From positions 3,439 through 67,438 of the forward strand of contig JACQXG010000039.1 in NCBI GenBank assembly GCA_016208905.1: a stretch of 64,000 nt of DNA. Reading direction: 5' to 3'. Source of the DNA: Nitrospirota bacterium. Lineage in GTDB: Bacteria; Nitrospirota; Thermodesulfovibrionia; UBA6902. The notes under the pieces are model-generated. The model worked only from the letters and a program-made list of their open reading frames with translations, was not told the origin of the DNA and did not search any database. Position 1 is the stretch's first letter. Every line of letters begins with the position of its first letter. Below are positions 1,515 through 32,112 of this stretch, piece by piece. A program made the translations under genes and the position numbers.

Positions 1515-3044
1515 TTACGGAGATTTGTTTTTCTTCTTCAACCGCTGATTCAGCGCCTGACGCGTAATGCCCAGCAGCGAAGCCGCGCTTCCCTGGTTGT
1601 CGTCACAGCATTTCATGGCTTCGGAAATTATGTGGTCTTCCATTTCCTTTAAGGATGGGAAATGTCCGAATATCTTTTTTAAAGAAGATGAGTTTTCATC
1701 CTCAGGCATGGCCTCAGTTTGCGGCAGCGGCCGCCTTTGTTTTATGAACCCCTTGAAACTGTCCAGGGAAAGTTTCCCTGATTTATACTGCGCAACAGCG
1801 TCATGGACCATGGCCTGAAGTTCGCGGACATTTCCCGGGAACTGATAGTTGGAAAGCAGGGTGATGAGTTCAGGAGAAAGCACAGGCTGCTTCTTGTTCA
1901 TGGTGCCGGCTGATTCTCTAATGAAATGATCAAGCAGCAATGGAATGTCCTGAAGACGTTCGCGGAGGGGAGGAATGTGAATGTGATGCGCGCACAGCCG
2001 GTAATATAAATCATTGCGGAACGATCCCTTTTCTATCTGCTCCTGAATGTCCTGGTTTGAACAGGCGATGATGCGCGCGCCGCTTTTCTCCGGTGTGTCT
2101 GATCCGAGGGGGTAGTAAATCCTTTCCTCCAGCAGGCGCAGGAGCTTCACCTGTGATGATTTGTTCAGGTCGCCTATCTCATCCAGTAAAAGGGTGCCTC
2201 CCGAGGCGCGTACTATCAACCCTTCTCTGTCCTTGTCCGCCCCGGTGAATGCGCCTTTTTTATGGCCGAATAACGTATCAGAGAACATCGTGTCATCCAG
2301 ACCGGCCACATTAACGGCAATATATTCACCTTTCAATCCGCTTGCAAGATGGACTGACCTTGCAACCAGCTCTTTACCGACTCCGGTTTCTCCGGTTATG
2401 AATACCGGCTTCTGTGATTTTGCCACGGCCTCGATGTACTGGAAGATGGCCCGCATCTTTTTACTTTTCGTAATGATCGATGAAAAGGCCGCCTCATTCT
2501 CCAGTTCCCCTGTGAGAAGGTGTTTCTTGAGTGAGGTTATCTCTTCTTCCATCTGCTTGCGCTCAGTGATGTCCCTGACGATATGGATTACACCTATGAG
2601 CTGATTGTTGCCGTCAAATTGGGGCATGGCCCTTATCTCAAGGAATTTATTCAAATGGGGCTCGTACGTTTCAAAGGCGACCGGCTTCTCGGATTTAAGG
2701 CACTCGCAGCTTGGGCAGCCTTTGGGAGGGGAACTCTCTCCGTGGTAATGCTGATAACATTTTGCTGTTTTGGACTTTAAGAAAGGCAGCCCGAGAATTT
2801 TTTCTGCTGCCTTGTTGGCGTGTATGATATTGAAGTCTTTGTCGTGGACCGTGATCATGTCGGTTATGTTATTGAAGGTGTCCTCCCAGCTGTATACCGA
2901 TTGAAAGATCAGCTCGTCCGAGCGTGAATGTTCCCTTTCCATATCGGAAACAAGCTTCCGCATTTCTTCCAGCTCTTTTATAAGCTGTTCTTTTGTTTTT
3001 TCATTATCATTCATAATAATGTTTTTTCTGATGAATGCATCCAA
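1515..3044 (-). CDS. sigma-54-dependent Fis-family transcriptional regulator with N-terminal PAS domain
   Basis: Contains the AAA+ sigma-54 interaction domain (GETGVGKE Walker A and the GAFTGA motif) and a C-terminal HTH. A PAS-like region lies upstream. The track start is a TTG, and ATG at 3014 (MNDNEKTK) is an alternative start. Confidence 0.85.
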   Translation of the reverse strand: MDAFIRKNIIMNDNEKTKEQLIKELEEMRKLVSDMEREHSRSDELIFQSVYSWEDTFNNITDMITVHDKDFNIIHANKAAEKILGLPFLKSKTAKCYQHYHGESSPPKGCPSCECLKSEKPVAFETYEPHLNKFLEIRAMPQFDGNNQLIGVIHIVRDITERKQMEEEITSLKKHLLTGELENEAAFSSIITKSKKMRAIFQYIEAVAKSQKPVFITGETGVGKELVARSVHLASGLKGEYIAVNVAGLDDTMFSDTLFGHKKGAFTGADKDREGLIVRASGGTLLLDEIGDLNKSSQVKLLRLLEERIYYPLGSDTPEKSGARIIACSNQDIQEQIEKGSFRNDLYYRLCAHHIHIPPLRERLQDIPLLLDHFIRESAGTMNKKQPVLSPELITLLSNYQFPGNVRELQAMVHDAVAQYKSGKLSLDSFKGFIKQRRPLPQTEAMPEDENSSSLKKIFGHFPSLKEMEDHIISEAMKCCDDNQGSAASLLGITRQALNQRLKKKNKSP

Positions 3045-3203
3045 AGTCAGAGGAGGGTAAATTTAAAAAGTCATCTCGATACCTTAGCACAGCCTTAATA
3101 GTACAAAAAGATGCGAAAACGCCGCAGCAATTAAAACAGGCTGATGACATTATTTAATATCTTATCGAATTATGAATTTTAAAATTTACCCTCCTCTGAC
3201 TTT
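3043..3203. promoter_or_regulatory. 27-bp inverted repeat pair, with one mismatch, flanking about 107 bp in the divergent promoter region between the PAS sigma-54 regulator and the DUF1460-ampG genes
   Basis: aaagtcagaggagggtaaatttaaaaa (3043-3069) against ttttaaaatttaccctcctctgacttt (3177-3203). Confidence 0.7.
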
Positions 3204-5709: not shown

Positions 5710-7203
5710 TCACAATGAACCATTAAGGTCGACCGGCAATCTGCCCTGAAAAACGGCTTCCCCTCTCAGGCATTTAACAACAGAGGACTGCGCCTGCAAG
5801 GTGGTATCATATGCGGCAATGAGCGCGCCGGCTTCCATAAAATGCCTGAGCACATAAGGGCTGCCGAAAGATATCACGATTGAATGGCGGGATTTTTTAA
5901 TGATATCTCTGATTATATTTATTTCTTCATCCCTGATACCCGAACTTCCCTCCCATGCGGCTATTTTGGTAAAGAGCGCAACGATCAGGACTTCCCGCAG
6001 GGTCTCGCCTTTATAAGCCTTTATATTTATTGATCCCGGAATGAAGGTTTTAAGGACTGACAAATCATGTTTGCTCTCGTCGGCTGAGAATACAAGAGAA
6101 ATATTCTGAACGATCTTCAGGGAATGAAAGTCAGGTTTATTTTTAACGAGGGTCACCGATCTGCCGGAGATTGTATCGGAGAGCTTTTTATTTGCATGAT
6201 AGTCCGGCTGGACTTTCTGGATGCTCTTTATCCTGGCTTTGTATTGCAAAATCCGCTCTACGGCAGCGTCTATCTTTTCTTCCTTCATTTCACCGGATGC
6301 GACTGCGTGTTTAAGTTCTTTAACAACGGAGCCGGCATCTGCAGGATGGAGCAGGACATCGACTCCGGCATTTATGCACGTTGAAGGGACATTTTTGAAT
6401 TCCTTAAGCGCGTGCATGTTCAATGCATCTGTGAGCACAAGCCCTTCAAATCCAAGACCTGTTCTTAAAAGACCGGTTATGACCTTCTTTGAAAGAGATG
6501 CTGGGAGGTCATCAATGGCCGGGACTCTGATGTGTCCTGTCATGATACTGCTGACATTTGTTTTAATGGCTTCAATGAATGGAAATAAGTCTGTATCATT
6601 CAGCTCTCTGAAAGATTTCGAGATGACCGGCAGAGATATGTGGGAATCAATAGCTGTGTCCCCGTGTCCGGGAAAGTGTTTGGCGCAGCTTATTAGCCCT
6701 GTATTTTCCAGAGTCCTGATATACATCTTCCCATACCACGCTACAATCTCAGGATTGTCGGAAAAGGCCCTGGTGCAGATTATCGGATTATCGGGGTTCC
6801 TGTTTACATCAAGGACAGGGACCAGCGGCATATTGATCCCGATATCAATTGACTCGATAGCTATTGCCCTGATTGCATCTCCAAGGAGCTTTACACTTTC
6901 GAAGTCATGCCTGTCGATCGCTGCTGCTACAGCCATCTGCCCCGGGAAAGAAGTAGCCCCGTCTATTTGCTGCCCCACGCCCCTTTCTATGTCGGAGGCA
7001 ATAAATAACGGGATTTCAGAGATGGATTGCAGTTTAGCGATAAAATTTTTTATCTCATCTTTTTCACCGCCGAAGACTATGAAACCTCCGATCCCCTTTC
7101 GGACAAGCTCAACAGCATGTTCCGCATATGAAGATAAAGAAATCTTCTCTCCGTCAATCCTGCTGATGATGAGCTGGAAGAGTTTTTTATCAAGACCTGG
7201 CAT
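5710..7203 (-). CDS. nagZ: beta-N-acetylhexosaminidase, GH3 family, NagZ-like, with a C-terminal extra domain
   Basis: Carries the KHFPGHGDT...DSH GH3 catalytic motif and is 497 aa long. Confidence 0.8.
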   Translation of the reverse strand: MPGLDKKLFQLIISRIDGEKISLSSYAEHAVELVRKGIGGFIVFGGEKDEIKNFIAKLQSISEIPLFIASDIERGVGQQIDGATSFPGQMAVAAAIDRHDFESVKLLGDAIRAIAIESIDIGINMPLVPVLDVNRNPDNPIICTRAFSDNPEIVAWYGKMYIRTLENTGLISCAKHFPGHGDTAIDSHISLPVISKSFRELNDTDLFPFIEAIKTNVSSIMTGHIRVPAIDDLPASLSKKVITGLLRTGLGFEGLVLTDALNMHALKEFKNVPSTCINAGVDVLLHPADAGSVVKELKHAVASGEMKEEKIDAAVERILQYKARIKSIQKVQPDYHANKKLSDTISGRSVTLVKNKPDFHSLKIVQNISLVFSADESKHDLSVLKTFIPGSINIKAYKGETLREVLIVALFTKIAAWEGSSGIRDEEINIIRDIIKKSRHSIVISFGSPYVLRHFMEAGALIAAYDTTLQAQSSVVKCLRGEAVFQGRLPVDLNGSL

Positions 7204-7261
7204 GAGACATTATAAACTACTTAGCAAATAAAACACCCACCCGGTTTAAACCCTGAAAATG

Positions 7262-7330
7262 CATTTCAAATAATGCAGATGTTGGAAAATTAATTAATTG
7301 TCGATACCTTAAACGCAATATTCATTAATT
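7262..7330. repeat. 69-bp dispersed repeat, copy 1, lying 5' of nagZ
   Basis: Matches 17804-17872 at 65 of 69 nt in the same orientation. Confidence 0.85.
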
Positions 7331-7390
7331 TTATTTGATACGCATATCAGGCAGTAGACGGGAAGGGGGAAATATTATACGATTAAATTA

Positions 7391-8380
7391 ATGTCTGCCG
7401 GCCGGGACGATAAATTTACCGAGAGAAATTTGAGGGATATGATTGCGAATTGCGTGGACCCTGCGCGCGTGCCGAAAAGGATTAATATAATTACTGACAC
7501 ATCGGACTTTTTCAGGGTCGATTACGACGATGTTGTTATTCTTAACGGCCGTCCTTATTTTATCAGAAATTATGAGAAGGAAGGGCGTTTCAGCATAGAT
7601 GAGCAGCCGAAATTCTGGGTCAGGAGGGCGATTGACCTGCATGACGGGAGTATGAAAATTATTAAAATGGTTTTTCCTGAAAGATTCGATGCTAAAGTCG
7701 GCGATATAACTTTTGACTGTGTGCGAAGTCCTAAAAAAGAGGCCAGAATTCTTGAGTTGGTCAAAGGCCACCGGAATTTCATGCAGGGATTCAGCACCGT
7801 AGATTCAGCGGGGAATATCATAAGAATCGTTGATTATATCCCGGGCGTCGCGATAGATAACCTGGTATCAAAACTCGGCAAGGACCATGAAGACTATTTC
7901 TACAATCATTTTCTCACTGTATTTAACGATTATATCGAACTGGTAAAGGCCATCAAATTTCTTCATGACCACGGGGAGAAACACGGAGACATCAGACGGG
8001 ACCATATTATTAAGGACAAGCGCGACGGATTTTACCGGTGGATTGACTTTGACTATAATTACTGGCATAAAGAAAATATGTTCGGTTACGATCTCTTCGG
8101 GTTAGGCAACATCCTGATTTTTCTTGCCGGTCAGGGCGATGTTACCACGCAGCAGCTTGTACATAATGATCACCCTGTGCTGAACAATTTAACTGCTGAT
8201 GACACGAACATTATTTTCCGTAACAGGGTGGTCAATCTTCAAAAGATTTATCCTTACATCCCTGATGCGCTGAATTTTATTATGCTTCACTTCTCCAGGG
8301 GGACGGAGGTGTTTTACGATGATACAGATCAATTCCTGAATGATTTGCATGAAGCAGGGGATAAATTAGGTAATTCATAG
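7391..8380 (+). CDS. atypical protein-kinase-like (PKL) fold protein
   Basis: Has a catalytic-loop-like HGDIRRDHII (compare HRDLKPxN) and a DFG-like WIDFDY. Candidate beta3 Lys (MKIIK) and alphaC Glu (KKEARILEL) are present. There is no Gly-rich loop. Confidence 0.5.
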   Translation: MSAGRDDKFTERNLRDMIANCVDPARVPKRINIITDTSDFFRVDYDDVVILNGRPYFIRNYEKEGRFSIDEQPKFWVRRAIDLHDGSMKIIKMVFPERFDAKVGDITFDCVRSPKKEARILELVKGHRNFMQGFSTVDSAGNIIRIVDYIPGVAIDNLVSKLGKDHEDYFYNHFLTVFNDYIELVKAIKFLHDHGEKHGDIRRDHIIKDKRDGFYRWIDFDYNYWHKENMFGYDLFGLGNILIFLAGQGDVTTQQLVHNDHPVLNNLTADDTNIIFRNRVVNLQKIYPYIPDALNFIMLHFSRGTEVFYDDTDQFLNDLHEAGDKLGNS

Positions 8381-8447
8381 TGAATTCTATTCCAATGGTT
8401 GTAGACATGGAAGGCTGTGGAAGAATTTCTATACGACACCTCTAAAA

Positions 8448-8480
8448 AAGAGTTAAGAGTTAGGAGTAAAGAGTTAAAAG
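8448..8480. repeat. heptanucleotide tandem repeat array (agagtta-type)
   Basis: Reads agagttaagagttaggagtaaagagttaaaag. It is enclosed by a long-range inverted repeat, 8411-8422 against 8551-8563. Confidence 0.7.
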
Positions 8481-8616
8481 AAGAAAAACAATATGATTGC
8501 TATGAAGCAAAAATCTAATAAGTCGTTTGTCGATTATAGAAATTCTGGAACAGACTTCCATGTCTGCTGAAAGATATCAAATAAAATTTAAGATATTTGA
8601 TGACTAATAACATAGT

Positions 8617-9120
8617 TTGGAAAGGGGGAAGGCTTTGGAAAATAACAACGCGGGGAATTCTGATTTACTAAAAGACAGACACGTCCTCATCGCGCTGGAT
8701 GAGTCGGAAAATGCTAAAAGGGCGCTTCTTTATGCAGCGGATTTTCTTGGGGGTGTGCCGGGATTTCGCGCCACTCTTCTCAGTATTATCCCTGAACCGC
8801 CTGAAGATTTTTTTGGCACGGATAAAGACCGTCAAATGTGGATAGAAGACCAGCATTTCAAGGCAAAAGAGATGCTCGATAAATACCGCCGGATACTTAT
8901 TCAATCCGGGTTCAGTGAAGATAAAGTAGAAGTCCTTATTGATGTCAAAAATTGCCCTTCTGTTGCGGAATGCATACTCGAGGAGCAAAGGAAGCTTGGA
9001 TGCTGTACGGTTATCGTAGGGCGGAGAGGAATATCAAAGACAGAAGAATTTATGTTCGGCAGCACTTCCAGCAAAATCCTGCATGCCGGGAAAAACTGTG
9101 CTGTATGGGTAATCGGATAA
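8617..9120 (+). CDS. universal stress protein (UspA family)
   Basis: Shows the USP fold signature ...VIVGRRGISKTEEFMFGSTSSKIL.... The start is TTG, and an AAGGGGGAAGG RBS precedes an alternative TTG at about 8635. Confidence 0.75.
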   Translation: MERGKALENNNAGNSDLLKDRHVLIALDESENAKRALLYAADFLGGVPGFRATLLSIIPEPPEDFFGTDKDRQMWIEDQHFKAKEMLDKYRRILIQSGFSEDKVEVLIDVKNCPSVAECILEEQRKLGCCTVIVGRRGISKTEEFMFGSTSSKILHAGKNCAVWVIG

Positions 9121-9125
9121 AGTGA

Positions 9126-10670
9126 TTAATTCTCTTTTTCTTCTATCCCGTATTTCTTCATTTTATACCCGATCTGCCTCGGGGTAATGCCGAGAAGACG
9201 CGCTGCCTTTGCATGAATCCAGCCTGACTTTCCCAGGGCATTAAGGATATTGGCCTTTTCAAGTTCCTCGATATTTGCTGTTAAGGATGATAATTTGTCG
9301 GAATTTTTCAAACGGCATATATTCATAGATACAGGCAGATCTGTCGCGGTTATTATATCTGAACCGGACATAACAACGAGCCTTTCAATAGTGTTTTCAA
9401 GCTCTCTTACATTACCTGGCCAGTGGTAATGTATAAAAACCTGCAAAGCGCTTTTATCCATGACCACGAAGCGGACGTTTTCTTCATTGAATTTATGTAA
9501 GAAATGTTCAATGAGGATTGGTATGTCCTCTTCTCTTTCCCGCAGTGGAGGTAAGAAAAGCGGTATCACATTAAGTCTGAAATAGAGGTCTTCCCGGAAT
9601 TTCCCCTGCGATACCAGGTTTTCAAGGTTGCGGCTTGTTGCGGTAATTATCCTGACATCAACCTTCAGTGTCTTTTCACTGCCTATCCTCTCAAATTCCC
9701 TTTCCTGCAGGACACGCAGGATTTTCGGCTGAAGCGCTGTGGGCAGGTCTCCTATTTCATCAAGGAAAATGGTCCCCTTATTTGCAAGCTCGAACTTGCC
9801 GCTTCTGGAGGAAACGGCCCCGGTAAAGGCCCCTTTTTCATGTCCGAAAAGCTCTGATTCTAAAAGTCCTTCGGGAATTGATGCGCAATTAAACTTAATA
9901 AAAGGCCCTTTGTTCCTCTGGCTCATGTAATGGATTGCTTTGGCGATCAGTTCTTTCCCGGTTCCGCTTTCACCCCGCAAAAGTACGGTTGCCTTTGAAG
10001 GAGAGACCCTGTGGACTGCCTTAAAAACCTCCTGCATCCTGTCAGAGTCGCCGATAATGTTATCAATGCTGTATTTGCCTTTTAACTCTCTCTTTAAATG
10101 CTCCTTTTCTTTTTCGATCCGCTCATAGCTTTCCCATAATTTAATAAACTGAGCTATTAATGAAGCCACGATTTCCAGGACCCTGAGGTCGTCATCGACG
10201 TTCCCCTTTTTTTCCGAATAAATCCTGTCAACGCTCAAAACTCCAAGCACTTCATTTTTAAGCTTGATGGGTATGCACAGGAAAGAAATACCGTCTTTTT
10301 CCGGCCTTGCCCCGGTCTTGTTCAGAAACAAAGGCTCTTTCCCGATATTGGGAATTACCATAGGTATCTTTTTTTCCAATACCCGGCCTACTATCCCTTC
10401 ACCAATCCGGTATTTACCTTTCTCGATATTATCTTTTGTAAGACCATGTGCCGCAACAATGCGGAGTTCCCCTGAAATCTTGTCGAGCAGAAATACGCAC
10501 CCCCTCTGCATTTCAAGCAGGCTCCCGATTGTCGACATTACTGACGACAGGTTTTTCTCAAGGGCAAAAGAGGTGGTGAGGACCTTGCTGACCTCAAGAA
10601 TGGCAGTCAGTTCCCTGTTTTTCTGGAGGATGAGGTCGGTTTTTCTATTTTTATCCGGGACGGATTTCAT
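9126..10670 (-). CDS. sigma-54-dependent transcriptional activator with N-terminal GAF domain (NifA/FhlA-like architecture)
   Basis: Has a GAF-like N-terminus, an AAA+ domain with GESGTGKE and GAFTGA, and a C-terminal HTH. It is divergent from the radical-SAM locus. Confidence 0.85.
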
Positions 10671-11036
10671 TGGCTAACACAAATAAATATATTGGAAAAA
10701 AACAGCGCATTATATTCATACTCAATGAATATAATGAGTTTTTTATTTATTCATCTTGAGAATAAATAATACTAACATCAGGTCAAAGCTTATATCAACT
10801 AAAGGTCCTTATATTACTTAAAGAGTATGGGTTAACACTATAGGTCACCATTGCCGGGTTTATGGATGACGCTTTGATTATTAATTGTGAAATATATGTA
10901 TGAAACGGTATAATAAAAAAGTTGAAATTCAATATAGCTGTAGAAGTTATATTCATATCCACTAGGGAAATTCATAGGAAAGAAAATTAACGCTGCATAC
11001 AACACATAAGTGCAGCTATTTTTTAACGGAGATTTT

Positions 11037-13448
11037 ATGGCAAAAGGTTGTTGTGACACAGGGAGAGAACAGCGTATTAAACAATACGATCTTACTGCAT
11101 GGTCTATTGCGGACCCTAATATTAAGGCTTTTAATTCTGATGATGTCTTATACTCCCCTGAATATTTAAAGAAACAAAAAAACGGTATATCTCTTTTTAT
11201 AGACCCTAAGTCGCCAAACTGGATCAGTGTAAATGAGACAGGGGCTGAGGTCATTAAACTTTGTAACGGCAAACGTGCGCTGTCTGATATTCAGGACTAC
11301 ATTTGCGATAAATATAAGGTAACGAACAAAAAGGAAGTCAGAGATGAAATCTCAAAATTCCTGAGCGCAGCAAGATTACTTGAATTCGTATCAAATACCC
11401 AATTTGTAAGACCTGAATATAAGGGAAGAAGCAGTGCGATTGCCCCCCATAAATTAGATGAACTCTGGATATATTATACGCTTGCCTGTAACCTCAGATG
11501 CAGGCATTGTCTTGTAAGCGCCGGAAAAGGCCTGCGAAAGGAATTGACCAATGACGAATTCAAGAAGGTCATAGACGATTCAATTAAGTTAGGGGTTAAA
11601 CGGTTTTACATTACAGGAGGTGAGCCGTTTATAAAAGAAGGAATATTTGACCTTATTAAATATATTACAAAAACAAAAAAACGTGAACTTATTGTTCTTA
11701 CTAATGCCACTCTTTTTGATGACAAGAAAATAGGAGCCTTGAAGAAGTTAGTCAGTCCCAAACTCCTTTTACAGGTCAGCCTTGAAGGCCCGAATGCGGA
11801 AATTCATGACGCGCTTCGCGGGAAAGGCAGTTTTGATAAGGCTGTAGAAGGTATCAGAAAATTAATAGACATAGGTATCACTCCTATTGTTTCAACGGCC
11901 ATCAGTAAGTTGAATGAGAAAGATATTGCAAAAACTTCCCGCTTTCTGTCAAAGCTTGGCATCCAGGAACATAATGTCCTATGGATGCATGCAAAAGGAC
12001 GGGGCGCGAGTAACTTAAGTGATTTATATGTGCCTTCCGATGATATTGCACGGGCGATGAAAAGACTTAAAAAGGAATATAAAGAGAAGGAGATGATATT
12101 TGATAATGTCGAATCATTGAAAGTCCGTGTCAGGACAAAGAGAGGAAGGAAAAATGACCTGTGCAATAACTGTTATGAAAAAATCTGTGTGAATTCTGAC
12201 GGCAATGTATATCCGTGTGCTTCACTCAATGGTGACAAAAATTTCAATGCAGGGTCCGTCCGTAACAAATCACTTAAAGATATCTGGCTGAATTCGAAGG
12301 CCATGGAAAGAGGCAGGAAAAACAGTGTTCAGGACAAACCGGAATGCAGGGATTGTTATCTTGAGTACTTCTGCGGCGGCGGATGCACATCTCATAGTTA
12401 TTATGCATCGGAAGTAGATACAGGAAAGGGGTCCGTCAAGGCCCTTGATCCTTATTGCTCGACGTATAAAGCATTGTTTGAGGACATTATCTGGGAGCTG
12501 GCTTCTGAGGGAGTTACGCCCCAAAGCGGAAAAGGCTACACTTCTCCTCTGGTTTATAATGCTATGGATTCAAAACTGCCCGGTCATCTTGGCGCAGGGA
12601 TTAAATCAATAGATAAGAATTTTGAAGTAGGGTGCTACCATTGTTCATGCGTGCTGTCGGTTGACGTTGAAGATGATGAAGAAGTTTGCAAACCTGAGAT
12701 AAAGGGACATGTGACCAAGACGGTGAAAAAGAAGTTTTCTAAAGCCGCCTATAATCCTGTAGCTGATTACTACTGTCCTACGGGTTACGCTCCCAATGAC
12801 CTGGCGCATATACCGAATGAAGTGCTCGATGTTTCTTATGGATGCGGCAATCCTGCTGCGCTTGCAGACATTAAAGAGGGGGAAACAATCGTTGATTTAG
12901 GCGCAGGTGGCGGCATTGACTGCTTTATTGCCGCGAAGAAGCTCGGGGATAAGGGCAAGGTAATCGGGATAGACATGACCGATGAAATGCTGGAAAAGGC
13001 AAGAGAAAGTGCGAAGAAAGTTGCAACGGTCCTGGGGTACGACATTGTCGAATTCAAGACAGGAAATATCATGGATATGCCTGTTGAGAGCAATTCGGTT
13101 GATCTGGTCATATCCAACTGTGTTATTAATCTTACTGAGGATAAGGCTAAAGTATTGAAAGAAATATATCGAATATTAAAACCAGGAGGGAGGTTTATTA
13201 TTTCGGATATTGTTTCGGATAAACCTGTTCCCGGATATTTAAAGAGAGACAAAGAACTGTGGAATGCATGTCTTTCAGGAGCTCTCACCGATAGTCAGTT
13301 TGAGGCAGTAGCAAAAAATGCCGGGTTCTCCAGTGTAAATATGACGAAAAATTACCTTTATAAGAAAGTTGAATATATAGAGTTTTATTCAATAACCTTA
13401 AAAGGGAGCAAACCACAGGAAGTCAATTGCTGTTGCTCCTGCAGTTGA
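11037..13448 (+). CDS. multidomain fusion: PqqD-like RRE, radical SAM, SPASM and arsenite-methyltransferase (ArsM/AS3MT)-like SAM-dependent methyltransferase
   Basis: The start is refined to ATG 11037, preceded by a GGAG RBS. The RRE reads NETGAEVIKLCNGKRALSDIQDYICDKYKV...ISKFLSAARLLEF. The rSAM cluster is CNLRCRHC, of CX3CX2C form. Cys-rich SPASM segments read CNNCYEKICVNSDGNVYPC and CRDCYLEYFCGGGC. The C-terminal MT domain has YGCGNP, DLGAGGGIDC, ISNCVINL, LKPGGRFIISD and WNAC, conserving the three AS3MT catalytic cysteines. The protein begins MAKGCC and ends CCCSCS. Confidence 0.8.
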   Translation: MAKGCCDTGREQRIKQYDLTAWSIADPNIKAFNSDDVLYSPEYLKKQKNGISLFIDPKSPNWISVNETGAEVIKLCNGKRALSDIQDYICDKYKVTNKKEVRDEISKFLSAARLLEFVSNTQFVRPEYKGRSSAIAPHKLDELWIYYTLACNLRCRHCLVSAGKGLRKELTNDEFKKVIDDSIKLGVKRFYITGGEPFIKEGIFDLIKYITKTKKRELIVLTNATLFDDKKIGALKKLVSPKLLLQVSLEGPNAEIHDALRGKGSFDKAVEGIRKLIDIGITPIVSTAISKLNEKDIAKTSRFLSKLGIQEHNVLWMHAKGRGASNLSDLYVPSDDIARAMKRLKKEYKEKEMIFDNVESLKVRVRTKRGRKNDLCNNCYEKICVNSDGNVYPCASLNGDKNFNAGSVRNKSLKDIWLNSKAMERGRKNSVQDKPECRDCYLEYFCGGGCTSHSYYASEVDTGKGSVKALDPYCSTYKALFEDIIWELASEGVTPQSGKGYTSPLVYNAMDSKLPGHLGAGIKSIDKNFEVGCYHCSCVLSVDVEDDEEVCKPEIKGHVTKTVKKKFSKAAYNPVADYYCPTGYAPNDLAHIPNEVLDVSYGCGNPAALADIKEGETIVDLGAGGGIDCFIAAKKLGDKGKVIGIDMTDEMLEKARESAKKVATVLGYDIVEFKTGNIMDMPVESNSVDLVISNCVINLTEDKAKVLKEIYRILKPGGRFIISDIVSDKPVPGYLKRDKELWNACLSGALTDSQFEAVAKNAGFSSVNMTKNYLYKKVEYIEFYSITLKGSKPQEVNCCCSCS

Positions 13449-13486
13449 GAAATGAGTTTAAATATAAACAAGAGAGGTAGAGATAA

Positions 13487-14968
13487 ATGAGAGTAACTTT
13501 GGTTAACGCACAGGTATTGGACGGCAATAATGTCGTACCCCCTTTAGGGCTTATGTATATCGCTGCCGTATTGGAAAAGGCCGGACATGCTGTCCAGATA
13601 TTTGATTCCGACCCCGAATACCAGGATACCATGCTTAAGGAGATAAAGGAATTTAATCCTGAATTGATAGGATTAAGTTTCCTGACAGTAGCCTATCAGA
13701 GGGCATTTAACCTTTGTAAGACTTTAAAAAAGGAACTGCCTGATGTTACATATTGTGCAGGAGGAGTGCATACAACAGTTAAACCTCATGATACCTTAAA
13801 AGAATTCGACCTCGATTTCATTGTTATTGGAGAAGGTGAAGACACTATAGTTGAAGTATGTGAGAAACTTGCAAAGAAAGAAGGCGTTGCGGGGATAAAG
13901 GGAGTTATGTACCGTGAAAACGGTGTAATTATTGAAAACGAAAAACGTGATATGATTACTGATCTTGATACCATCCCGTTTCCTGCAAGGCACTTAATAG
14001 ATATGAAACCCTACCTGAAGCCGCCGGGAATTATAAGGGGCTATGCTGAAAAGAACCAGACTACCATTGTTACAAGCAGGGGTTGTCCGTTCAAGTGTAT
14101 CTACTGTGGCAGTCATAACATATTTGGCAGAAGGACAAGAAGACGCTCCGTGAAAAATGTTGTTGACGAGATAGAACATCTGGTCAAGAATTACGATATG
14201 AAGGGTATATATTACTGTGATGATACGTTTACTCTCAGCTCCAAATGGGTAAAAGAATATTGTGAAGAACTGAAGAGGAGAAATCTGAATATTAAATGGG
14301 CTTGCCAGTCAAGGGTGGACCAGACCGACAGGGAATTAATGCAGAGAATGAAAGATTCCGGGCTGGTACAGCTTGACTTTGGCGTAGAAAGCGGTTCTGA
14401 AAAGATCCTCAAAGTGCTGGGCAAAGGCGGCGCCGGCGACAGGACATCACAGATAAAACAGTCTTTTAAACTTTGCAAGGAGCTGGATATCAGGACCCTT
14501 GCAACATTTATTATTGGTAATCCTACAGAAACAAGAGAAGATATAGAAGAAAGTTTTCAGGTAGCAAAAGAGATTGATGCCGATTACACAGCTTTTTATT
14601 TCCTGACTCCTTATCCCGGGACGGATATATATAACATGGCCATTGAAAATGGGTGGCTTGACCCTCACGTCCCGTTCTCAGAGATATGGGCGCACAGGCA
14701 GCCGGAGCTCCCATTGATGGCTATAACATTCGGCAAGGAAGAACTCCGGGATATCCGCAGACACCTGCAGAACCAGTTTTTTGTAAAAAATTATCTCAAG
14801 GCTTCGAGCAATATCAGCTTCTACTCGATACTGTTCAGCATTATCTTCAGGCATCCCAAAGTTATTCTGGATTGTCTTGGTAAACTAATCAGGACCCGAA
14901 GAATTGATTATATCGTTGAGACACTTAACGCGGAATACTGGCGGATGAAAAAGTACGAAGGGGCCTGA
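13487..14968 (+). CDS. B12-binding domain radical SAM protein (class B rSAM methyltransferase-like)
   Basis: Has an N-terminal cobalamin-binding-like Rossmann region, an rSAM cluster CPFKCIYC, and a ~16-18-nt gap after the fusion gene with an AGAGGTAGAG RBS. Confidence 0.8.
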   Translation: MRVTLVNAQVLDGNNVVPPLGLMYIAAVLEKAGHAVQIFDSDPEYQDTMLKEIKEFNPELIGLSFLTVAYQRAFNLCKTLKKELPDVTYCAGGVHTTVKPHDTLKEFDLDFIVIGEGEDTIVEVCEKLAKKEGVAGIKGVMYRENGVIIENEKRDMITDLDTIPFPARHLIDMKPYLKPPGIIRGYAEKNQTTIVTSRGCPFKCIYCGSHNIFGRRTRRRSVKNVVDEIEHLVKNYDMKGIYYCDDTFTLSSKWVKEYCEELKRRNLNIKWACQSRVDQTDRELMQRMKDSGLVQLDFGVESGSEKILKVLGKGGAGDRTSQIKQSFKLCKELDIRTLATFIIGNPTETREDIEESFQVAKEIDADYTAFYFLTPYPGTDIYNMAIENGWLDPHVPFSEIWAHRQPELPLMAITFGKEELRDIRRHLQNQFFVKNYLKASSNISFYSILFSIIFRHPKVILDCLGKLIRTRRIDYIVETLNAEYWRMKKYEGA

Positions 14969-15180
14969 ACTGAAGATAAGTAATAATGAAGAAATGGTGT
15001 TGAAATGCAACGAGTTTTCTTTTTATGTCGGAATTCCTTACTCTTGGCATAGAATTTTACATTTTAACCAGGGCTTGAATTATAGGTATCTTTGAAAATC
15101 AAGGACTTTAACATGAGCATAAGTTTTGCATATTTTAATAGGGATTAAATCAATCCAATTTACTATAATGCATTTAGGAT

Positions 15181-15549
15181 ATGCAGATGATTCGAAATAG
15201 GGTAGTGAAGACCGTTGAAATGGAAAAAAGGCGTTCCCAGAGGAAACCTGTGAGTTTAGACGCAGAAGTTTCCTTTGACGGTAAGAATTATCCCGTATAT
15301 ATAGAAAACATTTCCGAGTATGGATTACATGTGATAGCTGCTGCCGGGAAGAAAGCAGTATCTATTGTACCTGAGATGATACTTAAGCTCGAATTTCAAC
15401 CTCCTGCCGGGGAAAAAACAGACCTGCATTACGAGGTAAGATGGGTGCATATCAATAAAACCCCGATACATGGACTGACATACAGAATGGGTATGGATAT
15501 ATCAGATCAATTTTCAGGGCATAAAGACCTTCTTAACATTCTGGAATAA
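15181..15549 (+). CDS. PilZ domain protein (c-di-GMP receptor)
   Basis: Carries the RRSQRKP (RxxxR) and ENISEYGL (D/NxSxxG) PilZ motifs. Confidence 0.8.
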   Translation: MQMIRNRVVKTVEMEKRRSQRKPVSLDAEVSFDGKNYPVYIENISEYGLHVIAAAGKKAVSIVPEMILKLEFQPPAGEKTDLHYEVRWVHINKTPIHGLTYRMGMDISDQFSGHKDLLNILE

Positions 15550-15572
15550 ATAATATCATGCATTAAAATCCA

Positions 15573-15592
15573 GGGCGAGAGTACCTCGCCCC
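15573..15592. terminator. GC-rich hairpin between convergent genes
   Basis: Reads gggcgagagtacctcgcccc and resembles the hairpin at 4055-4073, both ending ...CGCCCCTACA. Confidence 0.5.
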
Positions 15593-15603
15593 TACATTCG
15601 CGC

Positions 15604-16401
15604 TTACAACCCCTGAACAGGCATAGGTGTAAAGGTCAGGACAAAGATTACAAGAGAGATCCAGCCGATAAGCCTTCTCTTTCTGTCTAATTGGATCTCC
15701 GGGTAAACTACTGGTGGATGTTTGTACCCGAGTATTATCATTAGAACAGCCCATATCAGCCAGCCAGGCCAGAATACAAGTCCGAGAACAACGAGAATGG
15801 GAATCATGCTTTTTGAAATCAAGGCATGTTTTTCTCCAAATAGCGCATATGTTATGTGCCCGCCGTCAAGCTGGCCGATTGGAAGCAGATTAAGCGAAGT
15901 CACTAAAAGACCGATCCATCCTGCAAAGGCCACCGGATGTAGTATTACATCGAATTTTTCAGGATCGGCATTTAAAACAATTTTAGATATAAAAGTGAAC
16001 AATAATGAACTGCCGAAGGCAATTCCGTCCTGAACTTCTTCCGCAGGCCTGACCTCGGACAGATGAAGGCCTGCGATGGATGCGATGACGGCAACAATAA
16101 AGCCGCCTATCGGTCCTGATGCCCCGATATCTATGAGTGAACGCCTGTCAGGTATGGGCGGCTTCATTTTTATAACCGCGCCAAAGGTGCCTATTATTGA
16201 GGGCGCTGGTATGAAATATGGGAGAGTCGCAGGTACGTTATGTTTTCGTGACGTCAGGTAATGGGCCATTTCGTGTGTAAGAAGAATAAAGAGCAGAGTG
16301 AGTGAAAAGGGCAGGCCGAGATAGATTTTTTCCGGCTGCTCCCAGGGGATGATGTTGCGCATCAGGGCTCCGGCAGAGAGCGTTGTCAAAAAGGTCTGCA
16401 T
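15604..16401 (-). CDS. site-2 protease family (M50) zinc metalloprotease
   Basis: Has HEMAHY (HExxH) and the downstream NLLPIGQLDGGH motif, and is multi-TM. The start may be the internal Met at about 16362. Confidence 0.8.
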   Translation of the reverse strand: MQTFLTTLSAGALMRNIIPWEQPEKIYLGLPFSLTLLFILLTHEMAHYLTSRKHNVPATLPYFIPAPSIIGTFGAVIKMKPPIPDRRSLIDIGASGPIGGFIVAVIASIAGLHLSEVRPAEEVQDGIAFGSSLLFTFISKIVLNADPEKFDVILHPVAFAGWIGLLVTSLNLLPIGQLDGGHITYALFGEKHALISKSMIPILVVLGLVFWPGWLIWAVLMIILGYKHPPVVYPEIQLDRKRRLIGWISLVIFVLTFTPMPVQGL

Positions 16402-16747
16402 AAAGAAAATTTTCCCAGTCGGCCAGCTTTTTTATCATACTGAGAAGACCCATATTTTTCCAGTCTACTTCCGGAAGTACCTGCTTGATTCCCATCAGCT
16501 TTGCGCCAACCCAGACAGCCAGAGAAGATAATGGCACAATCGTCCATGGATTATTGACGCTTATGCCGATAATTGCAACCAGCCTGTTTAACCGGAAAAG
16601 CCATGCAAGAAAAATCCCCCCGGCATAATGAAGTCCGAGCAATGGGGATATTCCCATAAACACGCCGAAGGCAAAAGCCAGCGCTATTCGATGCGGTGAC
16701 TCTTTAACTTTAAAAATGCTTCTTAATTTATCTCTGAAATAAGACAT
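16238..16747 (-). CDS. DUF2062 family membrane protein
   Basis: ESPHRIALAFAFGVFMGISPLLGLH...AIIGISVNNPWTIVP is typical of DUF2062. Its 3' end overlaps the M50 gene by about 120-160 nt. Confidence 0.6.
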   Translation of the reverse strand: MSYFRDKLRSIFKVKESPHRIALAFAFGVFMGISPLLGLHYAGGIFLAWLFRLNRLVAIIGISVNNPWTIVPLSSLAVWVGAKLMGIKQVLPEVDWKNMGLLSMIKKLADWENFLYADLFDNALCRSPDAQHHPLGAAGKNLSRPALFTHSALYSSYTRNGPLPDVTKT

Positions 16748-16753
16748 AATATT

Positions 16754-16824
16754 AGCTGTCAGCCATCAGCTGTCAGCGTTCAGCTTTTTAACTGACTGCT
16801 GATTGCTGAACGCTTATCGCTGAT
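16754..16824. terminator. heptamer-repeat hairpin at the 3' end of thiL
   Basis: cagctgtcagccatcagctgtcagcgttcagc and gctgattgctgaacgcttatcgctga are inverted, followed by a T-run. Confidence 0.45.
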
Positions 16825-17781
16825 TTTTTTAAAGTGTTCATATCCTTCCGGTTTAAAGAGTGTTTTCTTCCCCTTGCTATCTATGATATACCGGCCTTCT
16901 TTTATTATTTCCCCAATTTTATAATCATTCGTTTTGTAAGTCGGCCGGGCAGTATATAGCAGGGCATAATCTTCACCGCCTTTTAATGCATATTGCACCG
17001 GGTCTTGCCCCATGCTGTTAGATATGGATCGAAGCTCTTCGGATAAAGGAATATTCTCTTTATAAATTATTGCGCCCACCTTGCTTTCATCACATATATG
17101 ACTTAAATCTGCGAGAAGCCCGTCGCTGACATCTATCATGGATGTCAGTTTAGATGTGCTCTTTAACTGCTTAATATCCGGCATCAGATGTTTCTTAATA
17201 AGTTTTAAACGAGGACTGGCCGGGGAGAATATGTGTACCCGTTTGCCCCGTGTTTTTAAAAGCTGTAAGCCAATTGCTGAATCTCCTAAAGTATCCGTAA
17301 TGAATATCCCGTCTCCTTCTTTAGCGCCTGATCGTGAGACGATTCTGTTTGCATTGCCGATGAGTGTTCCGCTCAGCACAAGTCCCTGTCCTGAAGCGCA
17401 GGTGTCTCCTCCGATAATGGCTATTCCAAATTTCCCGGCGATTTTTTTTACCCCAGAATATAACTCATAAATATCTTCCGAATCATAATCCCCCGGTATG
17501 CCGAGACTTACAAGAAAATATTTGGGAGTTCCGCCCATTGCCAGTATATCGCTTATGTTGACGGCCAGAAATTTGTATCCCAGCTGGAAAAATGTCGTGA
17601 ATGAAAGGTCAAAGTGAACATCTTCAATTAACATGTCGGATGTAATCAGGAATTTTCTATCTGTGACTTTTACAACTGCGGCATCGTCACCAATGCCGGT
17701 CAGAACATCAGATAAAGTACCGGAGCATTTTTTTTGTAATTCTTTTATTAGTCCAAATTCACCCAGTTTTGTAATCTTCAT
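16780..17781 (-). CDS. thiL: thiamine-monophosphate kinase
   Basis: AIR-synthase-related fold with IGDDAAVV. The start is refined to the second Met (MKITKLGEFGLIKEL), because the first ATG at 17811 lies inside the 69-bp repeat. Confidence 0.8.
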   Translation of the reverse strand: MKITKLGEFGLIKELQKKCSGTLSDVLTGIGDDAAVVKVTDRKFLITSDMLIEDVHFDLSFTTFFQLGYKFLAVNISDILAMGGTPKYFLVSLGIPGDYDSEDIYELYSGVKKIAGKFGIAIIGGDTCASGQGLVLSGTLIGNANRIVSRSGAKEGDGIFITDTLGDSAIGLQLLKTRGKRVHIFSPASPRLKLIKKHLMPDIKQLKSTSKLTSMIDVSDGLLADLSHICDESKVGAIIYKENIPLSEELRSISNSMGQDPVQYALKGGEDYALLYTARPTYKTNDYKIGEIIKEGRYIIDSKGKKTLFKPEGYEHFKKISDKRSAISSQLKS

Positions 17782-17803
17782 TATTGTATTAACCAGAATG
17801 ATA

Positions 17804-17872
17804 CATTTCAAATAATGCGGATGTTGGAAAATAAATTAATTTTCGATACATTAAACGCAATATTCATTAATT
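17804..17872. repeat. 69-bp dispersed repeat, copy 2, lying 5' of thiL
   Basis: About 94% identical to 7262-7330. Confidence 0.85.
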
Positions 17873-18010
17873 GGAGCGTACACACTTTAATTTAAAGCCT
17901 CATGCATAATTTCTATTATAGTTATCGAGTTAATTAATTTATTTTTCAATGTCTGCATTATTTAGATTAATCACAACGGATTTCAGGGGTTAAGGAGCAG
18001 GATAAAATCC

Positions 18011-18070
18011 AGTTGTTAGTTGTTTGTTTTTAGTTGTTAGTCTGAAAACAAAAAACTGACAACTAACAAC
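18011..18070. terminator. heptamer-repeat hairpin downstream of lon
   Basis: agttgttagttgtttgtttttagttgttagtc ... ctgacaactaacaac are inverted, followed by TTTTTT. Confidence 0.5.
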
Positions 18071-18166
18071 TTTTTTCTCACCTGAATCCCCGCACCCTGT
18101 CTTGACTTACGGAATTAAAGAGGATGTTATTATGTTATGGGATTAAATTCCAGCAATTATTAAAAG

Positions 18167-20566
18167 CTACTTTTGGCCTTTTCTCTTTTTTATGCTCTTT
18201 TTAACTCTCGTCTTACTGCTTGTCTTAAGGGCGTTTTTCAATACCTCGTCCATAGTTTCAACAGGTATAAACTGCATATCTTTTTTAATATATTTAGGGA
18301 TATCTTCAAGATCTTTTTCATTTCTTTTAGGAATAATTACTTTTTTGATGCCCATTCTCTTTGCTGCAAGGGCCTTCTCTTTTAATCCGCCTATCGGCAG
18401 TACGGTACCGCGCAGAGTTACTTCACCGGTCATGGCAATGCTTTTATGGACAGCCCTGCCCGTAAATATGGAAGCAATGGCTGTGGCCATAGTTATCCCC
18501 GCAGAAGGGCCGTCCTTCGGAATCGCGCCTGCCGGGACATGTATATGAATATCATTATCTGAAAACATGGTATTCTTTATACCGAGGCTTTTTGCCTTTG
18601 AACGTATATAACTTAAGGCTGCATGAGCGGACTCTTTCATTATGTCTCCAAGCTGACCGGTAAGGGTAATGCCGCCTTTGCCTTTCATTATAATTGCTTC
18701 AATATATATTATATCCCCCCCCGCTTCAGTCCAGGCCAATCCGGTTGAAACGCCGACCTCATCTTTCTTGATTTCCTCTTCAGGCAGATATTTAGGCACG
18801 CCGAGATATTTTGACAGATTTATCGAGGAAATATTATATTTTTTGGTCTTGCCTTCAGCAATCTTTCTTGCTACCTTCCTGCAGAGATTGGCGATCTCAC
18901 GCTCAAGGTTTCTTACGCCGGCCTCACTCGTATAGTGGGTGGTAATCTGCAAAAGCGCGCTGTCATTTATTTTAATATCTTTTCCAGAAATGCCATGTTC
19001 AGTCAGCTGCTTGGGGATGAGATAATTTTTGGCTATTCCAGCTTTTTCCTCAGCTGTATAACCGGATAAGTAAAGCACCTCCATTCTGTCTCTCAACGGA
19101 GAAGGAATTGGGTCCATCTGATTTGCAGTTGTTATAAACATTACGTTACTTAAGTCAAAAGGGACTCCCAGGTAATGGTCTGTAAAGGCAAAATTCTGCT
19201 CCGGATCCAAAACTTCTAAAAGCGCGGAGGCGGGATCGCCTCTGAAGTCCATGCCTATTTTGTCAACTTCATCGAGCATAAACACAGGATTGTTTTTGCC
19301 TGTTGTTTTGATACCCTGAATGACCCTTCCCGGCATGGCTCCGACATATGTCCTTCTGTGCCCTCTAATCTCGGCTTCGTCTCTCATTCCTCCGAGGGAC
19401 ATCCTGTAAAACTCCCTTCCAAGAGCTCTGGCAATTGACTTGCCGAGTGAAGTCTTGCCGACTCCCGGCGGTCCCACAAAACACAGAATGGGGCCCTTCA
19501 TTTTGTCTTTTAACTTCCTTACTCCAAGATATTCAAGGATTCGTTCTTTGACCTTTTCAAGATCATAGTGGTCTTCATCAAGGACCTTCTTTGCACGTTT
19601 TATGTCGAGATTATCTTTTGTGCTTTTTGACCATGGCAGTTCCACGAGCCAGTCAACATAAGTTCTGATAGTGCCGGCTTCTGCGCTGTCCTGATGCATT
19701 TTATCGAGACGATTGATCTGTTTTATGGCTTCTTTTTCTACCTTTTCGGGCATCTTTGCTTCGTCAATCTTCTTGCGCAGATCCATGATCTCTTCGGTCT
19801 TTTCATCTATTTCGCCAAGTTCTTTCTGTATGGCCTTCAGCTGCTCCCTGAGAAAATATTCCCGCTGAGTTTTATCTATTTCACCTTTGACGTCTGACTG
19901 GATTTTCTGCTGCACGAGCAGCAGCTCAACTTCTCTGTTCAGGATCTCACTGATTTTATTGAGTCTCAGGATGGGGTCTGTTTCCTCCAGTAATGCCTGT
20001 GCCTGCTCAGCCTTCAAGCCCAGATTTGACGCAACTAAATCTGCAAGCCGTCCCGGTTCTTCTATGTTTTCGATCAGGACAATAATATCAGGCAGGAAAG
20101 ACTTTCCGAGCGCCAGGGATTTATCTACAAGTTCTTTTACATTCCGCATAAGCGCTTCAACTTCTAAAGTTAATTCAGGCTGTTCCTGGTCAACGACTTT
20201 TTCAATCTCTCCGATATAAAACGGATCTGTCTGGTTGTAATTGAGAATCCTTGCTTTTGACAGGCCCTGAACAAGAATTTTAAGTCTTCCGTCCGGCAGT
20301 TTCAGCATTCTTAATATTGTCCCGACTGTACCAACTGCGTAAAGGTCATCTTTGGACGGTGACTCTATATTAACGTCTTTCTGCGAGACAAGCAAAATTA
20401 GTTTGTTGCTTTCAACTGCATGTTCAATTGCCTTTATTGATATATCTCTTCCCACAAACAGAGGTAGAATCATATACGGAAATATGACAACATCTCTTAC
20501 CGGAAGAATTGGCAGGGTTGTCGGAATTTCTATTTCACGCTCTTCCTTTATATCAAAATCTGACAT
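18167..20566 (-). CDS. lon: ATP-dependent Lon protease (LonA)
   Basis: Has the Lon N-domain, an AAA+ GPPGVGKTS, and the S16 catalytic PKDGPSAG...K. It is 799 aa long. Confidence 0.95.
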
Positions 20567-22462: not shown

Positions 22463-22565
22463 AGAGTTCAGAGTTATGAGTTATGAGTTATAAATCAGAG
22501 AATGATCGCAAGAAATAGGTTACATTCTTAATTCTTAACTCTTGACTCTTGACTCGTAACTCTTT
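22463..22565. repeat. inverted pair of heptanucleotide tandem arrays (gagttat x3 and aactctt-type), forming a hairpin
   Basis: Array 1 reads agagttcagagttatgagttatgagtta and array 2 reads ttaactcttgactcttgactcgtaactct. The pgpA TTG start lies inside array 2. Confidence 0.75.
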
Positions 22566-24444: not shown

Positions 24445-24495
24445 ATTTTAGACTGACAACTGACAACTAACAACTTTAAAATATAGGGAGGCAAA

Positions 24496-32051: not shown

Positions 32052-32112
32052 AAGTGAGAAGTGGGAAGTAAGAAGTGAGAAGTAAAGAAAACGCCTTGAA
32101 CTTCCTTCTTAC
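32052..32112. repeat. heptanucleotide tandem array (gaagtga-type) with inverted partner
   Basis: aagtgagaagtgggaagtaagaagtgagaagtaaag ... acttccttcttactt. The same unit occurs in frame inside murD. Confidence 0.75.

Follow-up and report, generated by a model that had tools for sequence, protein, structure and literature searches.

The repeat upstream of nagZ and thiL in a Nitrospirota contig very probably belongs to a family of miniature mobile elements found next to TTAA

Two minus-strand genes of a Nitrospirota bacterium (lineage Thermodesulfovibrionia, UBA6902; assembly GCA_016208905.1), nagZ and thiL, have nearly the same 69 bp of DNA in front of them, and the question is why. The window analysed here is a stretch of 64,000 nt of contig JACQXG010000039.1 (positions 3,439 to 67,438 of the forward strand), and all coordinates are those of the window. 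The segments 7262-7330 and 17804-17872 repeat each other in direct orientation on one strand, with identity at 65 of 69 nt, as a reading of the letters alone (the original prediction) had said. With up to 3 mismatches allowed, neither half of the 69-mer has a match in the 64 kb beyond these two places, and 0 matches were seen in 100 shuffles. The repeat is genuine and not a product of chance, but it covers just part of a larger unit. It had been proposed to be a shared promoter or operator, a small RNA, or a mobile repeat resembling REP sequences or MITEs (miniature transposable elements with inverted repeats). Our answer is that it very probably represents a family of ~180-bp non-coding, non-autonomous mobile elements, a MITE family, spread in uncultivated Nitrospirota. 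It stands before nagZ and thiL because insertions landed there, and its placement is not evidence of shared gene control.

The boundaries of the repeat had been described as sharp. This holds for the right edge (7330-7332 and 17872), but on the left a similarity of lower identity runs on to a terminal TTAA (7246-7249 and 17789-17792). A profile of the family searched against the window gave exactly two hits, one complete element and one fragment, here called copy B and copy A. The repeat search also gave one more copy, partial and in inverted orientation, at 17932-17963 and 90 nt from copy B; the original prediction lacked it. The parts of the element are as follows, where F is the plus strand of the window and R the opposite strand.

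17789..17970, plus strand (F): copy B, the complete element; 182 bp with the two TTAA counted (nhmmer 142 bits over profile positions 2-181; family alignment; empty site in locus L080)
17789..17792, no strand: TTAA at the long end, taken as one of the two target copies, at a distance of 7 nt from the thiL start (a single TTAA at the L080 junction, two in the window, 174 bp apart)
17793..17811, plus strand: long-end terminal sequence CCAGAATGATACATTTCAA, starting with the terminal CC(C) and followed by an extension of ~14 nt (alignments)
17812..17847, plus strand: left arm of the terminal inverted repeat, ATAATGCGGATGTTGGAAAAT...TCGAT, in a 35-pair stem with 17924-17961
17848..17923, plus strand: variable centre, ~76 nt, subfamily-specific, the window's variant being in common with locus L022
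17924..17961, plus strand: right arm, TATCGAG...ATTTTTCAATGTCTGCATTAT, an inverted copy of the left arm (repeat search, alignment, fold)
17967..17970, no strand: TTAA at the short end, taken as the second copy of the duplicated target (L080 comparison)
7246..7332, plus strand: copy A, truncated (nhmmer match to profile positions 3-86 of 183, with 61 bits and E 2e-17)

Alignment of the full copies with their flanks gave a unit of ~182 bp, in which the conservation ends exactly at TTAA on either side. The layout is TTAA-CCCAAAAAATGCATTTAA-(AATAATGCGGATGTTGGAAAAT ... ATTTTTCAATGTCTGCATTATT)-TGGG-TTAA. The termini read TTAA-CC(C)...GGG-TTAA, with imperfect terminal inverted repeats of ~36 bp, and in the consensus the inverted repeat extends through the CCC/GGG to the TTAAs. 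The element is asymmetric, since the extension of ~14 nt at the long end (family consensus TTAACCCAAAAAATGCATTTAA, then the arm) is missing from the short end. The TTAA is intact at the long end in 22 of 32 distinct copies, at the short end in 19 and at both ends in 15, so that most copies have it intact at one end or the other, and the remainder are one-base variants. The largest open reading frame (ORF) lying wholly within the element has 26 codons, which makes the element non-coding.

Every structural feature of a MITE that could be tested was found. The element is small, 182 bp as compared to the ~50-400 bp of MITEs, and has no coding capacity; it has terminal inverted repeats (35 pairs, 17812-17847 with 17924-17961); there are multiple dispersed copies, at 46 sites, with presence or absence between relatives at the thiL, nagZ and trmD-like/rplS junctions; and a comparison of filled and empty sites revealed a target-site duplication, on one precise pair. 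These features, the unrelated flanks of the copies and the absence of the element upstream of the nagZ and thiL genes of relatives together support the mobile-repeat option of the original prediction.

The precise pair is that of copy B, which lies between lon (18167-20566, stop at 18167) and the ATG of thiL (17781), both on the minus strand.

16780..17781, minus strand: thiL (thiamine-phosphate kinase), neighbouring gene, outside the element (Pfam AIRS/AIRS_C)

The empty counterpart, L080 (CAYMUX010000085), has a thiL ortholog that is 92% identical and the same NTP-transferase/lon/thiL/DUF2062/M50 synteny, and its lon-thiL spacer is 206 nt as compared to 385 nt in the window. Read on the minus strand, the window has ...CCGTTGTGA-TTAA-(174 bp)-TTAA-TACAATAATGAAG and L080 has ...CCTTTGTGA-TTAA-TACAATAATGAAG, an uninterrupted junction that can also be given as ...GTGA-TTAA-TACAATAATG.... 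The flank on the thiL side shows 48/49 identities, and the gain at the filled site is exactly 174 + 4 = 178 bp. The two junctions show that copy B entered the TTAA 7 nt upstream of the thiL start and apparently duplicated it; a duplication of the central TA within the TTAA would yield identical junctions. In more distant relatives, with a thiL that is 69% identical (L081-L083), the element is likewise missing, and just one TTAA stands 8 nt upstream of the ATG. The thiL protein of the window is 100% identical to that of a 'Nitrospirae bacterium' metagenome-assembled genome (MAG). A reconstructed empty site of copy B gave 0 hits in the metagenome scan, and the real empty site, in an NCBI MAG, differs from it by one base.

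The first ATG of the thiL ORF had been placed inside the repeat, which turned out to be wrong: the in-frame codon there is TTG (17811), and the first in-frame ATG is 17781, 7 nt beyond the element, in agreement with the start called in the 92% identical ortholog. The distances of 25-60 nt given from the repeat to the start codons fit nagZ, whose ATG at 7203 is 58 nt from the 69-mer (42 nt from the end of the element), but not thiL, where it is 22 nt.

What copy A retains is the long end and the left arm, as far as the beginning of the centre. It was said to lie immediately 5' of nagZ, as copy B does of thiL, and both positions are correct, but copy A also precedes, by ~58 nt, a kinase-like gene of the plus strand, and lies in the divergent spacer that separates the nagZ ATG (7203, minus strand) from the ATG of that gene (7391, plus strand).

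5710..7203, minus strand: GH3/NagZ-like gene, neighbouring gene, outside the element (Pfam Glyco_hydro_3; homologs)
7391-8380, plus strand: kinase-like gene, ATG at 7391

This site has no relative at ~90% identity, the best nagZ orthologs being ~71% identical, and the upstream regions of nagZ in L084-L086 carry no element. L086 has the same sigma-54-activator/Usp/kinase-like and divergent nagZ/MFS synteny, with a 208-nt divergent spacer in which the native blocks ATCGTATAATATTT...CGTCTACTG and TAAGTAGTTTATAATG are conserved on either side of the position of the fragment. The comparison shows copy A to be a decayed fragment in the nagZ/kinase spacer. The sequences AATGTCTGC and TATTATACGAT at 7370-7398 were considered as a degenerate right end of copy A and rejected, since they belong to a native block that is conserved in the element-free L086 and show no nhmmer homology. 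It was also possible to observe that the block directly upstream of nagZ (window 7204-7225, TAAGTAGTTTATAATG) is conserved in L086:2975-3003, and its TATAATG core also in L084:2985-3003. A perfect TATAAT thus abuts or overlaps the annotated nagZ ATG, which puts the real transcription and translation start of nagZ in question.

The first set of further copies came from an exact-pattern scan with the arm motif, in one genome per species, which gave 33 loci. The element is present in about 23 of them, and apart from one in a MAG labelled Omnitrophota these are all in Nitrospirota/Thermodesulfovibrionia MAGs; at least 15 loci are from a single MAG (CAYMUX01), and in 12 loci the arm motif occurs as a plus/minus pair ~130 nt apart. 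A metagenome scan added ~30 further copies. The pattern scans together (33 + 46 loci) gave 55 profile hits and, after merging of shared flanks, 46 distinct insertion sites in public genomes and metagenomes; where an organism label is given, it is nearly always that of a Nitrospirota MAG. The window has nothing in common with these loci but the element; the flanks are unrelated. As far as sampled, the family is limited to Thermodesulfovibrionia-like Nitrospirota. Several copies lie at contig ends or breaks, as expected since repeats break assemblies, and the ~180-bp repeats of this family, which fragment Nitrospirota MAG assemblies, can be masked or serve as markers. Presence and absence were also observed elsewhere: L031 has the element between a trmD-like gene and rplS, and L016 has the same genes without it.

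Some insertions are old, with orthologous sites in common between MAGs and flanks that are ~90% identical (L018/L008 and L022/L011+L026). At an orthologous insertion in common the arms are ~97% and the centre ~86% identical, a difference that is based on too few sites for significance, and a constraint in situ was therefore not accepted as a finding. The contigs of L018 and L022 (JACQXK01, labelled Candidatus Omnitrophota) and those of L008, L011 and L026 (CAYMUX01, labelled Nitrospiraceae) are 83-93% identical over kilobases besides having orthologous insertions in common, which points to wrong binning or a wrong taxonomic label for one of them.

Not all copies are intact. One of ~37 (L005:3039-3220) has its whole core, both arm variants included, inverted relative to the long and short ends, to be explained perhaps by inversion, as a rare event, between the 36-bp inverted repeats or by loss of the alternative end. 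Unrelated insertions are nested within an arm in L022:2511-2768 (~82 nt) and in L054:7007-7254 (~66 nt; the same as L057). At L008:6379-6732 just the first 44 nt of the element are left, and the next ~310 nt are unlike it and contain hairpins of G/C runs (CCCCCTTTGAAAAAGGGGG); the orthologous L018 keeps the full element. Truncated copies that are internal, and not at contig ends, have kept the long end more often than the short end, ~7:2 (window 7246-7332, L008, L029, L036, L043, L049 and L062, as compared to L053/L066 and L072). Their inner break points vary between profile positions 45 and 109, and no common retained motif was evident.

The setting of the copies among genes was read over the 46 sites from crude greedy longest-ORF calls, which give p values of about 0.01-0.05. 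The short end adjoins a gene stop 27 times and a start 12 times, and for the long end the counts are 24 starts and 14 stops. Where the neighbours are tandem genes, 15 copies are co-oriented, with the short end after a stop and the long end before the next start, as compared to 4 anti-oriented (two-sided binomial ~0.02); counting just neighbours of at least 100 aa, the numbers are 13 and 2-4. Starts lie within 30 nt at 12/24 long ends and 1/12 short ends, and where the N-terminus is recognisable (thiL, a KdsA-type synthase, a DHH protein) the start follows the TTAA at a distance of 2-14 nt, and a separate Shine-Dalgarno sequence is lacking. In eight cases a stop codon reaches into the terminal TTAA, whose duplication regenerates TAA. 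Copies are also found inside operons, in opp, upstream of rplS and upstream of a kdsA-like gene. The favoured orientation inside operons, with a start 2-14 nt past the long end, would require the element to permit transcriptional read-through, and translation initiation at its edge. A leader mini-ORF in the long end (ATG CAT TTT TTG GGT TAA) was considered and discarded, as it is not conserved across copies.

The genes adjoining the copies (methyltransferases, D-Tyr-tRNA deacylase, nitroreductase, L19, ABC components) revealed no common function. We infer that the pattern probably tells which insertions are tolerated, and not how a set of genes is regulated. In locus L059 two copies in the same orientation (L059:3158-3339 and L059:4493-4674) bracket an OppC-type permease gene in the opp operon (...-E-oppC-E-oppD, where E is the element), with OppD beginning directly past the second one; insertions within operons are thus seen to be tolerated.

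The element is probably moved by a cut-and-paste transposase of the DDE type, acting in trans, which would recognise the inverted ends and make a staggered cut at TTAA or at its central TA. The position before nagZ and thiL would then mark where insertion is tolerated and would not reflect shared regulation. Tolerance could have several sources: the duplicated TTAA would regenerate a TAA stop for the upstream gene, the element would mostly be retained in the orientation whose transcript makes the weaker hairpin, with A·C mismatches, and it may sit in operons with the next start codon 2-14 nt past the long end.

Several points weigh against the MITE explanation. One insertion alone has a nucleotide-precise empty site, and the apparent duplication could in principle be one target TTAA together with a TTAA carried by the element. 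None of the scans revealed an autonomous element or a transposase with matching ends: the genome, metagenome and viral scans gave no parent with the same ends and no arm pair more than ~200 bp apart, though exact-match scans would miss diverged ends and did not cover a whole genome. The hits of the viral scan were rejected as family members, being chance 22-mers. Current activity is unproven, some insertions being old, with orthologous sites in common and ~90% identical flanks. The orientation statistics come from the crude gene calls, with p values just about 0.01-0.05. Finally, arms that hardly vary between distant genomes, compensatory double changes and the hairpin's G·U bias exceed what a purely selfish, decaying repeat would show, and leave room for a role at the level of the host or the RNA.

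Judged by analogy of function and structure, the closest known things are bacterial MITEs such as Correia/NEMIS and ERIC (PMC10969869, PMC3184786). Correia elements (CREE/NEMIS) of Neisseria are non-coding, ~100-200 bp long, with terminal inverted repeats of ~26 bp or more and many intergenic copies, often directly upstream of genes; they have a TA-containing target, can form long transcript hairpins and are reported to be inverted on occasion (PMC10969869). The present element resembles them in being small, non-coding and flanked by inverted repeats, with dispersed intergenic copies, a TA-containing target and long hairpins. It differs in that the flanking duplication reads TTAA and the arms are longer (~36 bp) and asymmetric, with 14 extra nt at one end. 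Promoter, IHF-site and RNase III functions have been shown for Correia elements, whereas promoter scans were negative here. The two are from different phyla, and a sequence relationship was neither looked for nor expected.

ERIC/IRU sequences are imperfect palindromes of ~130-170 bp in transcribed intergenic regions, with orientation-dependent effects on mRNA (PMC10969869, PMC3184786). Such effects have a parallel in the orientation bias and the strand-asymmetric hairpin of the present element, for which effects on mRNA are inferred alone. Unlike ERIC/IRU, it has a nucleotide-precise empty site and a TTAA duplication, and it differs in lineage and sequence. A full-text literature search gave no papers combining MITEs with Nitrospirae, and among the papers listed as combining MITE, TTAA, target-site duplication and bacteria, the titles and abstracts contained no bacterial MITE with a TTAA duplication. 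The phylum, for which no MITE family seems to be on record, thereby gains a well-defined one with a documented empty site, though it will be no major surprise to a specialist in bacterial repeats.

The ends also have a likeness outside the bacterial MITEs. A hallmark of piggyBac elements is the duplication of a TTAA target with termini 5'-CCC...GGG-3' just inside it, and both the TTAA duplication and the CCC...GGG termini are present here, although they also fit a duplication of TA with a flanking preference. The piggyBac transposases have been paired with prokaryotic IS1380-like elements (PMC5718144). The link concerns features of ends and target alone, no transposase having been found here, and enzymes of the IS630/Tc1-mariner-like kind (TA within a T-TA-A preference) or the IS5 type (YTAR) would give the same junctions. 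The TTAA and CCC...GGG are therefore a lead to a piggyBac/IS1380-like enzyme and not a result, but a lead that points to a transposase type seldom discussed in bacteria.

Among the alternatives, the one that survives best keeps the mobile element and adds that its hairpin was co-opted at the RNA level, as a processing or stability site of the RNase III type, a terminator or insulator, or a small RNA of the F strand; we regard this as possible, but on balance improbable. Folding of both strands gave a long hairpin that is more stable on F than on R. In 17 full copies the F strand forms an uninterrupted 35-pair stem with a consensus energy of -32.7 kcal/mol, and the same positions on the opposite strand contain A·C mismatches and give -18.0. 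On F 98.8% of the cells in the stem are paired, and double-change cells number 12 as compared to 3.7 in shuffles, of which 0/500 reach 12. Non-Watson-Crick sites in the main stem of 37 unique full copies are of the G·U type on F in 18 cases and of the A·C type in 4 (binomial ~0.004). The fold is better as F in 35 of the 37, with means of -46.0 (F) and -37.6 (R) kcal/mol, and for copy B the values are -46.6 (z -7.2) and -35.1 (z -3.5). The arms, nearly unchanged at the orthologous insertion in common where the centre has diverged, and the orientation bias of 15 to 4 also speak for an RNA role, and there are precedents in Correia elements with RNase III and ERIC with RNase E (PMC10969869).

On the other side, the favoured orientation puts the weaker R hairpin into the mRNAs, which fits an avoidance of structure equally well. 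We give modest weight to the suggestion that strong hairpins are selected against in transcription units. The copies are related by descent, so that few independent events lie behind the pairing statistics, and strand-biased mutation or gene conversion between the arms could give the same pattern; the asymmetry is compatible with either, as it is with selection on a single-stranded F form (RNA or single-stranded DNA). The family fold revealed no conserved structure in the central region. Rfam 15 gave no hits in the window at the gathering threshold, and noise alone over the element at E<=10. Of the small RNA in the original prediction there remains the strand-specific pairing bias of the hairpin, and no Rfam family to go with it.

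A more far-reaching proposal, which we consider rather doubtful, joins these threads: that the element belongs to an undescribed prokaryotic TTAA-specific (piggyBac/IS1380-like) system, as an 'operon-transparent' miniature derivative that regenerates TAA, tolerates or supplies starts 2-14 nt beyond the long end and has a hairpin selected on one strand. As part of this joint and equally doubtful claim, the one-strand pairing would imply a selected function as RNA or single-stranded DNA, for instance orientation-dependent mRNA processing or an F-strand small RNA. Whatever its origin, the combination of orientation bias, stop-restoring target and one-strand pairing bias makes a compact natural system for the tolerance of mobile hairpins in operons.

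It is unlikely that the element is a repeat of the REPIN or PATE type, moved as single-stranded DNA by an HUH enzyme (RAYT or IS200/IS605-type), with the strand-specific hairpin as the recognition structure and the second TTAA borne by the element. Insertion beside a fixed tetranucleotide, which is typical of IS200/IS605 elements, would agree with it. So would the pairing that is kept on one strand, with G·T tolerated, A·C avoided and compensatory changes in the arms, which resembles what is reported for REPINs (PMC3116915). REPINs are short, non-coding hairpin repeats, dispersed and intergenic, with arms evolving in a correlated way (PMC3116915), and the present element is like them in all these respects. 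The long inverted ends, however, reach a palindromic TTAA on both sides, which is the classical architecture of a MITE of the DDE type. HUH-type elements have dissimilar ends and no inverted termini. Further points against are the exact gain of 174 + 4 bp at the empty site and the lack of a Y1/RAYT gene beside any copy, though no systematic search for one was made. REPINs are paired short REP units without target duplication and tied to RAYT, whereas the element has long inverted repeats, an exact 178-bp gain and a duplicated TTAA; the traits of REPIN/PATE repeats, that is, no target duplication and non-inverted ends or paired short REP units, were not found in it.

A shared promoter or operator that co-regulates nagZ and thiL, with a -35/-10 of TTGCGT-N17-AATTAA reading into the genes, is very improbable. 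Both copies do aim the same end at a minus-strand gene start, the long end faces starts more than stops over the family (24 to 14), and a -35-like TTGAAA lies 17 nt from the long end, with a 10/12 hybrid match to the flank in copy B; Correia MITEs are also known to carry promoters (PMC10969869). But the orthologous upstream regions lack the element (thiL in L080-L083, nagZ in L084-L086), the genes downstream of other copies are functionally unrelated, and copy A is a broken fragment. The proposed motif is present in copy A but copy B has AATTTA in place of the -10, and the promoter scan calls neither. Scans of both copies for sigma-70-type promoters and terminators did not exceed shuffles, and a search by eye for a sigma-54 -24/-12 motif, there being a sigma-54 activator nearby, found none. 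In the hybrid TTGAAA-17-TACAAT the -10 lies one nt from the thiL ATG and cannot serve that start. The promoter option of the original prediction, which as a whole was partly supported, is thus not supported, and annotation should not take the likeness in front of nagZ and thiL for a sign of co-regulation.

An invertible switch, in which a site-specific recombinase flips the segment between the inverted repeats and changes the expression of the adjacent gene, is hardly credible: the inverted core of L005 and the inversions reported for Correia elements (PMC10969869) would fit it, but 36/37 copies from many genomes and samples agree in their internal orientation, no recombinase lies beside them, a convincing internal promoter is lacking, and for L005 one rare recombination between its 36-bp inverted repeats is explanation enough.

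The window contains other repeats besides the MITE. At 3043-3203 there is an inverted repeat of ~161 bp, with 32-nt arms that are 94% complementary and 97 nt between them, which abuts the start of a minus-strand gene (1515-3044); its sequence is unrelated to the element, and the 88 fetched loci contain no copy of it. Many intergenic arrays in which a 7-nt unit is repeated 3-5 times in tandem were observed, at 8448-8477, 18011-18041, 22471-22491, 22526-22564, 24452-24475 and 32052-32083, and further ones at 57352-57383, 60969-60999, 61138-61168, 61185-61213 and 61423-61456. The unit differs by array (AAGAGTT, AGTTGTT, GAGTTAT, TCTTAAC, ACTGACA, AAGTGAG, AGGGGCA, CCGTCAC), and several arrays form long hairpins with a complementary array. 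The arrays may be terminators built of heptamers or a separate class of repeats. One pair, 17998-18040 and 18042-18084, lies beside copy B, where it forms a hairpin just downstream of lon that is partly conserved in L080.

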